Shown piece by piece: positions 1,698 to 55,932 of a DNA stretch of 64,000 nucleotides. The notes beneath the pieces were generated by a model. The model did no database searches and was not told the DNA's origin. It saw nothing but the letters and a program-made list of their open reading frames with translations. Each line of letters begins with the position of its first letter. Within the stretch, counting starts at the first letter, position 1. This DNA is from Octopus vulgaris. Taxonomy: Eukaryota. Location: the NCBI GenBank assembly GCA_951406725.2, contig OX597822.1, positions 23,932,001-23,996,000 on the forward strand, read 5' to 3'. The translations under genes and the position numbers were made by a program.

Positions 1698-2081
1698 AAA
1701 TCTACTGGAGGAAAAGCTCCCAGAAAGCAACTGGCCACCAAGTCTGCCCAAAAGAGTGCCCCAGCTACCGGTGGGGTGAAGAAGCCTCATAGATACAGGC
1801 CTGGAAGTGTTGCTCTTTGTGAAATCTGTAGATATCAGAAGTCTACTGAATTACTTATCCGTAAAATACCATTCCAGCATTTGGTCTGTGAAATTGCTCA
1901 GGATTTCAAGACCGATCTTCATTTCCAGAGTTCGGCTGTAATGGCTCTCCAAGAAGCTAGCAAAGCTTAATGTTTTGGTCTCTTTGAAGATACCAACTTG
2001 TGTGCAATCCACGCCAAGAGAGTTACCATCATGCCAAAGGACATCCAGCTGGTCAGGCATATCCATGGTGAACAAGCTTAA
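1698..2081 (+). pseudogene. H3: Histone H3 pseudogene (canonical H3.2-like: A31, SAVM at 87-90), 5' truncated at K9
   Basis: Translates [15 protein letters not shown]...KPHRYRPG...[39 protein letters not shown] stop/frameshift near 1968 is followed by [25 protein letters not shown]...GEQA*. Many Arg to Cys/His/Gln changes fit CpG decay. No introns, no start codon. Confidence 0.95.
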
Positions 2082-3123: not shown

Positions 3124-3320
3124 ATAGTCAATTAAAAATAAAACCGAATAAAACAGACAACGTGAGGACATGCACAAGAAATAAATTAGCATGACACTCT
3201 GTGAAAAGAGAGAGTTTGACGTTTTGAGCAAAGCTCTTTGTTGGAAAGGTGAAAGGCTAAAGTCTGAAGAAAGAAAAGAAATTACCAACAGCACACATGT
3301 AGTTGCAATGTGGCTACATG
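3124..3320 (-). mobile_element. About 190-nt hammerhead mini-element, family 2 (decayed copy)
   Basis: Minus 3247-3214 reads uuu-CCAACAA-a-gagc uuu gcuc-AAA-ACGU-C-aaa, a CpG-decayed CCGACGA...GAAACGUC. Layout shared with 10470-10678, 32388-32565 and 39951-40160. Confidence 0.6.
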
Positions 3321-3332
3321 TGTGTGTGTGTG

Positions 3333-3535
3333 TATTTGTTTTCATGTTGAGTAACAGTAAAAACAATTTTACATTAATCTGATGGGTTACTCTATACTTT
3401 TGTAGAGTACAAATTTATTATTTTCATACAAGAATATTGTTCACAGCAATTTCAAAGATTCGACTAGCTAATCAGTCCAACAATGGCTTAACTGGATGAA
3501 ACTTCAAAGTCACTATCAACAACATTTTTGTATAA

Positions 3536-10469: not shown

Positions 10470-10678
10470 GTGACCGTGTGTGTATCGTTGGTGATTTTCT
10501 TTCTCCGTCTTTCCTTTCTTGGATCTTTCTTTTTTCTGTTTCTGACGAAGAGCTCTGCTCGAAACATTAAATCCTCCTTCTTTCCTTTTTTTCCTGAGCA
10601 TCCAATAATACTATTCTTGTTCCACGTCCTTGCATTGTTGTGTTTTCTCTTTGTGTTTTCATGTTTGGATTAACTATA
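10470..10678 (+). mobile_element. Hammerhead mini-element family 2
   Basis: Begins in (TG)n and ends ...aactat(at)n; hammerhead motif in the middle. Confidence 0.65.
10538..10572 (+). ncRNA. Minimal type I hammerhead motif (partly decayed)
   Basis: guuu-CUGACGA-a-gagc ucu gcuc-GAA-ACAU-U-aaau. Stem III ACGU has decayed to ACAU at a CpG. Confidence 0.65.
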
Positions 10679-18456: not shown

Positions 18457-18866
18457 CTATTTCTTTACAACCCACAAGGGGCTAAACACAGAGGGGACAA
18501 ACAAGGACAGTCAAATGGATTAAGTCAATTTTATTGACCCCAGTGTGTAACTGGTACTTATTTAATCGACCCCAAAAGGATGAAAGGCAAAGTCAACCTC
18601 AGTGGAATTTGAACTCAGAACGTAGCAGCAGATGAAATATCTATTTCTTTATTACCCACAAGGGGCTAAACACAGAGAGGACAAACAAGGACAGACAAAT
18701 GGATGAAGTCGATTATATCGACCCCAGTGCATAACTGGTACTTATTTAATTGACCCCAAAAGGATGAAAGGCAAAGTCGACCTTGGCGGAATTTGAACTC
18801 AGAACATAGCGGCAGACGAAATACCGCTAAGAATTTCGCCCGGCGTGCTAACGTTTCTGCAAGCTC
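18457..18866 (-). mobile_element. Tandem pair of young SINE family B subfamily copies
   Basis: Direct repeat 18457-18640 / 18641-18866, each beginning ctatttcttta..acccacaaggggctaaacacagag. CpGs are retained in the second copy. Confidence 0.85.
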
Positions 18867-31661: not shown

Positions 31662-31809
31662 TATACTGGTAAAAACGGTAAGATAACAAAAGAAAGAAAG
31701 AGACCTCAATATTATGTAAATAGAATATTCTAGCAAAAACTGTCCGACGAACGGCAACGTGAAACTCAGAGTAACAGGTTTTGTTGAATTTTCTGCTGCT
31801 TTAAATAAA

Positions 31810-31810
<1 letters not shown>
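31662..31810. mobile_element. (TA)n-bounded head-to-head Penelope-like remnant
   Basis: Left part is the reverse complement of the tail at 50200-50265. Right part is a hammerhead plus a tail whose reverse complement recurs at 31921-31955. Confidence 0.7.
31734..31783 (+). ncRNA. Minimal type I hammerhead motif with CCGACGA (U4C) core
   Basis: caaaa a cugu-CCGACGA-acg gcaa cgu-GAA-ACUC a GAGU-A^-acag g uuuug. Stems II and III pair fully, stem I has one mismatch; GNRA loop on stem II. Confidence 0.8.
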
Positions 31811-31850
<40 letters not shown>

Positions 31851-31852
<2 letters not shown>

Positions 31853-31957
31853 GGAGTAAACACATAAATGTGAAACAAGGTGGAAAAAAGAGTACTGAAA
31901 TACCAGGGGTAGAGTAATATGCTTTATTTCAAAGCAGCAGAAAATTCAACAAAAATG
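31851..31957 (-). mobile_element. 3' tail of the same element family as 31734-31810, inverted
   Basis: ctttatttcaaagcagcagaaaattcaacaaaa is the reverse complement of 31779-31810 (one indel); abuts (TA)n. Confidence 0.65.
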
Positions 31958-46370: not shown

Positions 46371-48324
46371 GCTTCAAATTTTGCCACAAAGGCAGTCATT
46401 TTGGGGGAGGGTGCTAGATGATTACATCAACCTGTGCTTCACTGGTGCTTAATTTATCAACCCCAAAAGGATGAAAGGCAAAGTCGACCTCGGCAGAATT
46501 TAAACTTATATTGTAGTGACGGTGTTAAATACTGCTAAGCATTTTGCCCAGCATTGCTAACAATTCTGCCAGCTTGCTGCCTTAATAATAATAAGAAGAA
46601 AAAGAATAATAATTTCTGATCACGAGCAGAAGTAATGGGGGAGAGTCATTGCCATGTGTTGAGAGGAATTCTTTGGGGTTTGACTAATTCACTTCTGGAA
46701 ACATATGTGTTCCGTTCATCATCCTTAAACAACCCTTATTCAGGGACCTTTTGAGCAGGATGAGCTACTCAACCTGAACAAAATTCCAACTGGGCTTCAC
46801 CTACAAGGTCATGTGTTGCTTATCTTAATATGAGATCACCATGTCACGCACATGTGGTTGTGATGCATGTGCCGCATGCACTGCTCTCTCACTCAATAAC
46901 AACCACCACCACCATTATTATAGTAATAATAATTTCAGAGGCACAAGGCCAGAAATTTGAGAGGAGATAAGTGATTAAATCAACCCCAGTACTTGACTGG
47001 TACTCTCTCAGCATGATTTAAAGTGAGAATATAAAGGGCCAGAATCAGTGATGGTAGTAGTGTTGGTGGTATTGATAATCATCATCATCATCATCATCAT
47101 CATCGTTTAACGTCTGCTTTCCATGCTAGCATGGGTTGGACGATTTTGACTGAGGGCTGGCGAACCAGATGGCTGCACCAGGCTCCAATCTTGATCTGGC
47201 AGAGTTTCTACAGCTGCATGCTCTTCCTAATGCCAACCACTCCGAGAATGTAGTGGGTGCTTTTTACGTGCCACCGGCACGGGGGCTAGTCGGGCGGTAC
47301 TGGCAACAACCTCGCTTGAATCTTTTTACACATGCCACCGGCACAGGTGCCAGTAAGGCAACGTTGGTAATGATCACGCTCGAATGGTGCCCTTTTACAT
47401 GCCACTGGCACAGAAGCAAGTTGGCTGCTCTGGCAACGATCACGCTCGGATGGTGCTCTTGGCACTCTACTAGCATGGGCACAAGTGCCAGTAAGGCAAC
47501 ACTGGTAATAATCACACTCGAATGATGCCTTTTATGTGCCACTGGCACAGAAGCCAGTTAGCCGCTCTGTCAACAATCACACTCATATGGTGCTCTTTCC
47601 ACCCCGCTAGCACAGATGCCAGTCATCGAGGTTATTATGATGGCATTAAAGATGATGCTGATGATGATGACAATATGGATGGTGACAATGATGATGCCTA
47701 TAATGATAACAAAAGATAACGACAAATTCAAGTATGACAATGATGATTGCAATGTAAACATTATTAACTGATAACTCTTCAAAAACTAGTGTCCAATATA
47801 TTCATCATCATCATCATCATCGTCATCACCATCATCATCATCATCATCATCATCCTGCTCCTCCTCATCATCATGGTCTACTGTCCATTTACTAATAATA
47901 TGTAGTGTTGATAGGCACACACACGTGATGTGTAGCTAAATAAAAGGATTTAATATCTTAACAGAAGAGCATGTATGAAGACAAAGAACAGGCGTTTGGT
48001 AAACTAGATATTTATTGCAAAAAAAAAAAGGGTGAAAAAGTAAACTAAAACCCTAAATGGATAGAGAAAACAAACACACAAACAAACACAAAAAGAAAAA
48101 CACTCAAACACAAATGCATAATATGACATGGATCAATTACCAAAAGACATCTTCCAGCAGAATAGTAACACTCCTGGTTATTAGAATTGCTGAACTTAAC
48201 AAAGTAGCACCAACATAAAATAATAATAGTATTATATCAACATGCCTTGTCAAAATGAAAAACATTAATTACTTAACAAGATCGTTATCATCAGAATCAT
48301 CATCATCATTGTAATAATAATAAT

Positions 48325-50072: not shown

Positions 50073-50265
50073 CATCTGTAAAATATATGTGACAATTATT
50101 CAGTAGCCATGATAAAACTCCAAGTTTCAGATGTCGGGGTGAAACTCAGAGTTTTATCATAGTTACCAAATAATTGTCACATATTACATTTACAGATAAA
50201 TTCCTCTATTCATATAATATCGAGGTCTCTTTCATTCTTTTGTTGCCTTACCATTTCTATCAACA
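50073..50265. mobile_element. (TA)n-bounded fold-back with hammerhead 3' halves
   Basis: About 55-bp inverted arms meeting at gtttc...gaaac. Right arm GAA-ACTCAGAGT-T has the same stem III as 31761-31772. Confidence 0.7.
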
Positions 50266-50275
50266 TATATATATA

Positions 50276-50516
50276 AATTCAGAGGACTGACCACTAAAAT
50301 TGGACAGCCTATATGCTATTTTCATTTGTCTTGCTTATTTTTACATTTTGGTTTTTTGTTGAGATTTTTCTTGAGAACACATTCTTCGTGGTAATGTCGA
50401 TTTGACGTCTATGTTTAGCATATAGGCTGTCCACTTTTAGTGGTCAGTCCTCTAAATTTTTGTATGTAACACAATTTTTAATCTTCAGATTTTTTCTACC
50501 CTTATTTAATTATTTC

Positions 50517-54941: not shown

Positions 54942-55893
54942 GGTATGTCTGAGTTCCCAACCTCATGGTTCGTTTCTTCTATTATAGACTCAGGCTGACC
55001 AAAACTTTGTGAGAGTATTTGGTAGGCAGAAACTCTGTGAGTGTGTGTGTTTGTCCCCTACTGCTTGACAACTGGTGTTGGTCTGTTTACATCCCCATAA
55101 CTTTGCAGTTCAGCAAAAGAGACCAACAGATTAAGTACCAAACTTAGAACCCAAAAAACAGGCACTGAGGCTGATTCATTCAACTAAAATTCTTCATGCT
55201 GGTGCCCCAGCATGGCCACAATCTAATGACTGAAACAAATGAAAGATAAAAATTATATATATATGTAGGCATAGGCATGGCTGTGTTTAGGTGCAGGCGT
55301 AGCTGTGTGGTTAAGAAGCTTGCTTCATAACCACATTGTTCTAGGTTCAGTCCCACTGCATGGCACGTTGGGCAAGTCTCTTCTACTATAGCCTTGCGCT
55401 GCCCAAAGCCTTGTGAGTGGATTTGGTAGATGGAAACTGAAAGAAGCCCATCTTGTGTATATGTATGTGTTTGTGTGTCTGTGTTTTTTCCCCGCCGCAT
55501 CATTTCTTGACAACTGATGTTGGTGTATTTATGTCCTTGTAACTTAGTGGTTCAGCAAAAAAGACCAATAGAATAAGTACTAGGCCTACAAAGAATAAGT
55601 CCTGTGGTCAATTTCTTTGACTAAAGGCGATGCTCCAGCATAGCCACAGTCAAATGACTGAAGCAAATAAAAGAAGATATATATATATATATATATAAGC
55701 ATATATATTATATATAATATATGTATATATGTTTAAGGCGGTGCTCCAGCATAGCCACAGTCAAATGACTGAAGCAAATAAAAGAAGATATATATAAGCT
55801 TATATATTATATATAATATATGTATATATGTTTAAGGCGGTGCTCCAGCATGGCCAGTCAAATGACTGAAACAAGTAATAAAAGTGTATATAG

Positions 55894-55932
<39 letters not shown>

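Follow-up and report, generated by a model that had tools for sequence, protein, structure and literature searches.

A type I hammerhead motif with C in place of U at core position 4, carried by subfamilies of a Penelope-like element of Octopus vulgaris

The DNA analysed here, hereafter the window, comprises 64,000 nucleotides of the genome of Octopus vulgaris (contig OX597822.1, positions 23,932,001 to 23,996,000). Within it, 50 bases of the forward strand (31734-31783) parse as a type I hammerhead, with a three-way junction and stems I to III in the order of that type (Table 1). The core of this motif departs from the canonical one at a single place. A cytosine, at 31745, occupies the position of U4 and forms a CpG with G5. 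C3, G5, A6, G8, A9, G12, A13, A14, A15.1-U16.1 and H17 are all present, and they are kept in the consensus of both lineages of the carrier element described below (A, to which the window copy belongs, and D), so that the canonical CUGANGA core fails at U4 alone. The first-pass annotation of this DNA had proposed just such a hammerhead, with a CCGACGA core and one mismatch in stem I, and it was right on both points. A descriptor scan of the 64-kb window returned the motif as its sole strong match, while 200 dinucleotide shuffles returned none. Rfam gave no hammerhead match, either for the whole window (none among the 150 rows listed) or for 31690-31812 (E up to 10).

Table 1. Coordinates of the hammerhead motif, of its carrier and of related repeats in the window.
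Feature	Position	Strand	Remarks
Old family B copy with a minimal hammerhead (stem III: ACGT)	3150..3320	-	core 3244-3238 decayed from CCGACGA
Old inverted-pair remnant, family C	3425..3535	+	core 3477-3483, probably CCGACGA before decay
3' tail of another repeat with a hammerhead (family F)	31665..31725	-	head-to-head junction
Remnant of the 3' pseudo-LTR, Hydra-clade Penelope-like element (PLE), C4/C7, GCAA-loop, U11.1 subfamily	31726..31810	+	85 bp
Stem I, 5' strand	31734..31743	+	pairs with 31774-31783
Core C3-C4-G5-A6-C7-G8-A9 (CCGACGA)	31744..31750	+
Stem-loop II, ACG-GCAA-CGT	31751..31760	+	3 bp, GCAA loop
G12-A13-A14, palindromic stem III (ACTC-A-GAGT) and A17	31761..31773	+	stem III: four pairs round one base
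Stem I, 3' strand	31774..31783	+	one A.G mismatch; 9/10 pairs in total
(TA)n tract, target type of Hydra PLEs	31811..31850	.
Inverted copy of the element's own 3' tail	31851..31954	-	truncated downstream of the cut site, coreless

Stems II and III had both been described as fully paired. This is correct for the short stem II. Stem III, by contrast, closes round a single base, so that its full pairing is impossible in a monomer. Indeed, the hammerhead fold of the monomer is computed at -4.6 kcal/mol, against -4.8 kcal/mol with stem III open, whereas a double hammerhead made of two copies reaches -20.8 kcal/mol, near the co-fold optimum of -22.6 kcal/mol. The cut is predicted 3' of A17 (31773), at a GUA site, and a second copy is predicted to be necessary for it.

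The motif sits in a remnant which is truncated at its 5' side just upstream of the hammerhead, and which is 100% identical over 85 nt with copies on other chromosomes. This unit is present on many chromosomes, frequently as inverted pairs within (TA)n tracts. In the genome searched (2.8 Gb in 227 contigs), it matches the 3' end of full-length elements. At eight loci chosen for paired matches the parent element is a unit of about 3.36 kb. Its ORF, of 711 amino acids, is followed by a 3' UTR some 1 kb long, and the hammerhead lies close to the 3' end. Pfam found no match for this ORF. Its motifs, as read at one locus (L032), are RWK at 37, DKT at 113, CxCx5C at 562, CxxC at 667 and CxH at 695, and it is by these motifs that Hydra-clade PLEs are recognised (Craig et al. 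2021, PMC8557442). With its single ORF, these motifs and a C-terminal endonuclease, the element is by sequence a Hydra-clade PLE. It also has the habits of the clade: it uses (TA)n targets and leaves copies that are truncated at the 5' side, inverted or arranged in partial tandem. Its length, by contrast, exceeds that of the clade, said to be 'generally' under 3 kb (PMC8557442).

A tblastn search of the window with the element ORF found nothing, and the window holds no second core, so that the copy studied here, having neither partner nor ORF, is likely to be inert. Over 71 nt, the inverted tail next to it departs from the majority tail at 3 places. Two other views of the locus were considered and dropped. 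A non-LTR retrozyme would consist of non-coding tandem repeats with one hammerhead per unit, whereas these are dispersed remnants of a coding element, with no tandem array here. As for a 3' splice site immediately before stem I, such as D. virilis has, it would need an AG which is not conserved in lineage D. Elsewhere in the window, tandem duplications at 18457-18823, 47330-47623 and 55689-55927 (periods of 184, 65/137 and 99) are apparently pieces of interspersed repeats. We take 1750-1970 (+), inside the ORF 1596-1970, to be a histone H3-like fragment with several substitutions, probably a pseudogene.

How common is C4 in the window's own family? An exact pattern, leaving positions 4 and 7, loop II and position 11.1 free, has 4,733 matches in the genome, and its control none. 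C4 is found in 1,567 of them and U4 in about 3,150 (estimated as 4,733 minus 1,567). Copies picked by their tail instead (the first 100 matches listed) span the core in 73 cases, 43 with U4 and 30 with C4. The consensus of the family, which the first-pass annotation had offered as a test of C4, thus goes against it: the majority is U4, and the commonest and youngest subfamily is canonical. The two states nevertheless live on different backgrounds. Position 11.1 is U, G, C or A depending on the subfamily, and it is A that accompanies U4 (75 of the 76 U4 rows among the first 100 matches listed). Only 26 of the 1,567 C4 copies carry A11.1; the other 1,541 are off the U4 haplotype. A query made of 3' UTR sequence from a C4 copy, the motif being left out, retrieved 30 loci. 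All 25 that could be scored had C4 (24 CG and 1 CA); five loci gave no match. One of these five (L150) has U4 with G11.1 and is a possible intermediate between the C4/G and the U4/A subfamilies. The C4 copies further follow an ORF of their own, whose protein is about 87-91% identical to that of the U4 ORF. No intact ORF was seen other than with U4, and the two C4 elements of nearly full length that were inspected (L248 and L253) carry frameshifts. At another locus (L162) a C4 motif lies upstream of an ORF start, in a partial tandem. That C4 copies sit off the U4 haplotype, and that sister lineage D shares C4, shows this base to be an inherited state of the subfamily and not decay of the window copy. 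The earlier view of a young copy whose C4 is unlikely to be decay survives in its second half; as to youth, the U4 subfamily is the younger of the two. Difference spectra, hardly a test of A-to-I editing as the source of C4, had no A>G or T>C excess that stood out.

Lineage D, 52-76% identical in its protein, has C4 in 17 of 20 copies and TG in the remaining three; the forms expected of CpG decay number 6 CA and 3 TG of the 20. Between the consensus of D and that of the window subfamily of A, 43 of 47 positions of the motif are identical, against 100 of 185 in the flanks (Fisher p = 6e-7). The four differences fall at N7, in loop II, at the centre of stem III and at a stem I mismatch. This conservation of the motif above its flanks points to selection having acted on it with C4 in place. 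No compensatory double change was seen in A and D; across families the stems differ in sequence and still pair.

The median distance to the group consensus is 0% for U4 copies, 1.4% and 2.7% for the C4 groups and 6.8% for D, figures that are underestimated, many A copies having been picked by exact patterns, and of which that of D is not like for like. It is by this measure that the window's C4 subfamily appears older than the U4 subfamily. The simplest order would have C4 ancestral in the lineage and U4 regained, through a CpG transition, in the youngest subfamily, and C7 and U11.1, which D and the window subfamily have in common, support it. The tree of the ORF (25 rows) leaves the root unfixed: its best version takes two changes, and both alternatives survive AU tests (p 0.115 and 0.258). 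The idea that the outgroup has a stem II of 4 nt was discarded, this being a deletion in one copy. Octopus transposons are mostly unmethylated (PMC9476566), which makes CpG retention only a soft clock; old copies here nonetheless show loss of the CpG type.

Two other families had been said to point to the same core, and the sequence CCAACAA is indeed present at 3244-3238 (-) and 3477-3483 (+), as decayed cores of other hammerhead-bearing repeat families. For family B, the first of these, the claim stands. Its copies have 81 C4, 18 U4 and 1 G4 among the first 100 of 121 matches, and the TG (15) and CA (13) of these 100 are in balance, as expected of CpG decay; by this count the master of the family carried C4. 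Stem I of this family has only 3-4 bp. For the second, family C, it holds in part: C4 is present, in a mixed family (22 C4, 25 U4 and 10 other, n=57). Family B2, a larger relative of B with 12,590 matches, has 75 C4, 23 U4 and 2 A4 among the first 100 listed. In a tree of its flanks (30 copies) the U4 copies cluster, with one change counted, two groups drawn, and at least five in 500 shuffles. C4 copies are also found in families E (2/5) and F (2/6), so that both versions coexist in families A, B2, C, E and F. A U4 copy of family B (CTGACGA) lies at 10505-10580 (+), which places both core types of B in one window, and decayed inverted-pair remnants of families C and F lie at 480-580 and 50095-50280. 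Type I hammerheads with C4, a stem I of 6 bp and a palindromic or near-palindromic stem III are seen in further repeat families (L226, L229, L230 and L232). At yet another locus (L243:980-3065, +) a 5'-truncated Neptune-like PLE ORF adjoins an inverted B2 element, an observation of adjacency only.

With a loose pattern, the genome yields 25,261 C4 matches (control 6,264) and 49,154 U4 matches (control 5,531), that is, about 19,000 C4 versus about 43,600 U4 matches above control, stems being unchecked and overlapping matches double-counted. Among 19 hand-picked C4 matches outside the two commonest haplotypes, 11 have at least three contiguous stem I pairs. A metagenome scan with the C4 Hydra pattern brought up 15 loci, none with more than three stem I pairs, and these were taken as chance.

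Does the motif cut? If elements were copied from cleaved RNA, 5' ends might pile up at the predicted site. The 100 tail-picked copies have no such pile-up, U4 and C4 alike: 3 start at -2 to +2, two of them being artefacts of internal deletion, 4 start farther downstream and 93 extend beyond the site. The inserted copies thus come from RNA uncut there, which does not amount to the death of the C4 form, since cut-site ends are wanting in U4 as well. A cluster does exist elsewhere: 38 of the 100 copies begin 36-47 nt upstream of that site, where a CTAG palindrome stands at the stem I foot, and microhomology between inversion junctions might account for it. Where tested, PLE hammerheads with their palindromic stem III are inactive as monomers and weakly active as dimers (PMC4209133, PMC6765202), and the minimal ones are already slow with U4 (PMC4209133). 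If the reduction due to U4C and the low activity of CUGA-turn mutants are added to this slow scaffold, the summed activity could be near zero.

On balance, and with moderate confidence, we favour the following account. The motif is a type I hammerhead placed in the 3' end of a Hydra-clade PLE, with a C4 handed down by master elements that were amplified repeatedly, and it likely is still a weak ribozyme. Two copies would pair through their palindromic stem III and then cut after 31773, as U4 PLE hammerheads do but more slowly, while a lone copy would not. Slow cleavage being enough, position 4 would be nearly neutral between U and C. That whole subfamilies, in thousands of copies, have inherited C4 is what leads us to predict that the motif likely still self-cleaves, slowly and as a pair.

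The competitor to be taken most seriously, though we consider it unlikely, is that C4 effectively abolishes catalysis, while the fold persists because it serves some purpose other than catalysis, for instance flagging the 3' end of the RNA to the element's reverse transcriptase. The 5' ends just described, almost all from RNA uncut at the site and many clustered at the stem I foot, would suit this idea. So would the low activity of mutants of the CUGA turn (U-turn) in a mutational scan (PMC9901934) and the spread of Naiad PLEs without canonical hammerheads (PMC8557442). Every other catalytic position, however, is intact across lineages A, D and B, natural CCGA hammerheads do cleave (2026 preprint), and the cut-site test, with U4 copies equally devoid of ends, cannot separate C4 from U4. 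At the other extreme, C4 might be adaptive or compensated, either cleaving like U4 thanks to a change of partner or alternating under selection between a slow C4 and a fast U4 state. This we hold to be improbable. C4 did persist over a deep split, despite a CpG that decays in old copies of D and B, and both versions recur in families A, B2, C, E and F; but a tolerated transition would equally produce repeated exchange of U and C. Furthermore, no change of partner was found: a compensating base at N7 or 11.1 was sought and rejected, C4 occurring with C7, U7 and A7 and with all four bases at 11.1. There remains the view that C4 is a sporadic mutation of the window copy, or the structure a product of chance. 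The U4 majority of the family and the silence of Rfam might have encouraged it, but the empty shuffles and the fixed position of the motif at the PLE 3' end speak against it, and the haplotypes of nearly all C4 copies, together with the C4 state of the copies retrieved by 3' UTR and of lineage D, have already refuted it.

The excess of loose C4 matches above control suggests that canonical descriptors likely undercount. The prediction that CUGANGA searches would miss such motifs is correct for the descriptor used for PLE hammerheads, which is CUGANGA (PMC8557442), yet less so in general, CYGANGA having already served as a search pattern, with C/T degeneracy reported (PMC13481778, 2026). As a bolder and rather doubtful proposition, about one third of the PLE-type hammerheads of this genome could be C4, several unrelated families having switched between C4 and U4 at master level, and CUGANGA censuses would then miss a large animal class. 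Craig et al. asked whether the hammerhead of PLEs processes RNA or is a mere passenger (PMC8557442). If C4 tunes or silences cleavage, the matched natural pairs of this genome would show whether self-cleavage is at all necessary to Penelope elements. Autonomous subfamilies, some canonical at position 4 and some not, each number many hundreds to thousands of copies. These subfamilies, one to three bases apart, are ready-made pairs of constructs.

In the literature searched, to which neither the main paper on variants of PLE hammerheads (Lunse et al. 2017) nor the first supplement file of PMC4209133 belonged, no mention of C4 came up for hammerheads of PLEs or of animals, so that its occurrence in subfamilies of an animal PLE is apparently unreported. 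Whether U4C itself had been described was a question left by the first-pass annotation, and the answer is yes, in viroids and viroid-like RNAs. In a viroid, U4C considerably lowered activity in vitro while infectivity was kept (Perreault et al. 2011, citing Ambros and Flores 1998). It was also seen in four variants, an earlier case being said not to affect self-cleavage (PMC9608096). CCGA further occurs in ZV1 and several betaviroid-like RNAs, and both strands of ZV1 and betavdl786 cleave in vitro (2026 preprint). The surprise is thus limited, U4C being already known as a tolerated natural change.

Compared with these relatives, the octopus motif shares the change from CUGA to CCGA with the hammerheads of PLMVd, CtaHVd-LR1, zeta virus ZV1 and betaviroid-like RNAs. 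Those, however, belong to circular RNA replicons, are of type III in ZV1 and the betaviroid-like RNAs, and are known as variants or single genomes, whereas here C4 marks whole retrotransposon subfamilies in the genome of an animal, within a minimal scaffold of type I. The minimal PLE hammerheads (Cervera and de la Pena 2014, PMC4209133; PMC6765202) resemble it in their palindromic stem III, predicted need for a dimer, thousands of truncated copies and inverted pairs. Family B fits their consensus (PMC4209133), and dimer-cleaving variants are on record (Lunse et al. 2017, via PMC6765202); a core variant named for these hammerheads is U3-A8, not C4. Close likeness is also seen with the Hydra-clade hammerheads of PMC8557442 (such as Hydra-2_aMil and Hydra-2_aJap in File S2). 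They too are of type I and near the 3' end, and their palindromic stem III has four bases round one base. The cut-site base is A, a mismatch at 10.1/11.1 is frequent, and the (TA)n targets and ORF motifs agree. The sole octopus family of File S2, Hydra-1_oBim, has a different hammerhead. All 26 Hydra rows of that file, compiled with the canonical descriptor, read CTGA, whereas the window lineage reads CCGA. A sea-cucumber Hydra hammerhead has the stem III layout of the motif but U4, and the coral Hydra-2_aMil, which has the same stem I core, the stem III layout of 31761-31773 and the same cut-site A, likewise carries U4.
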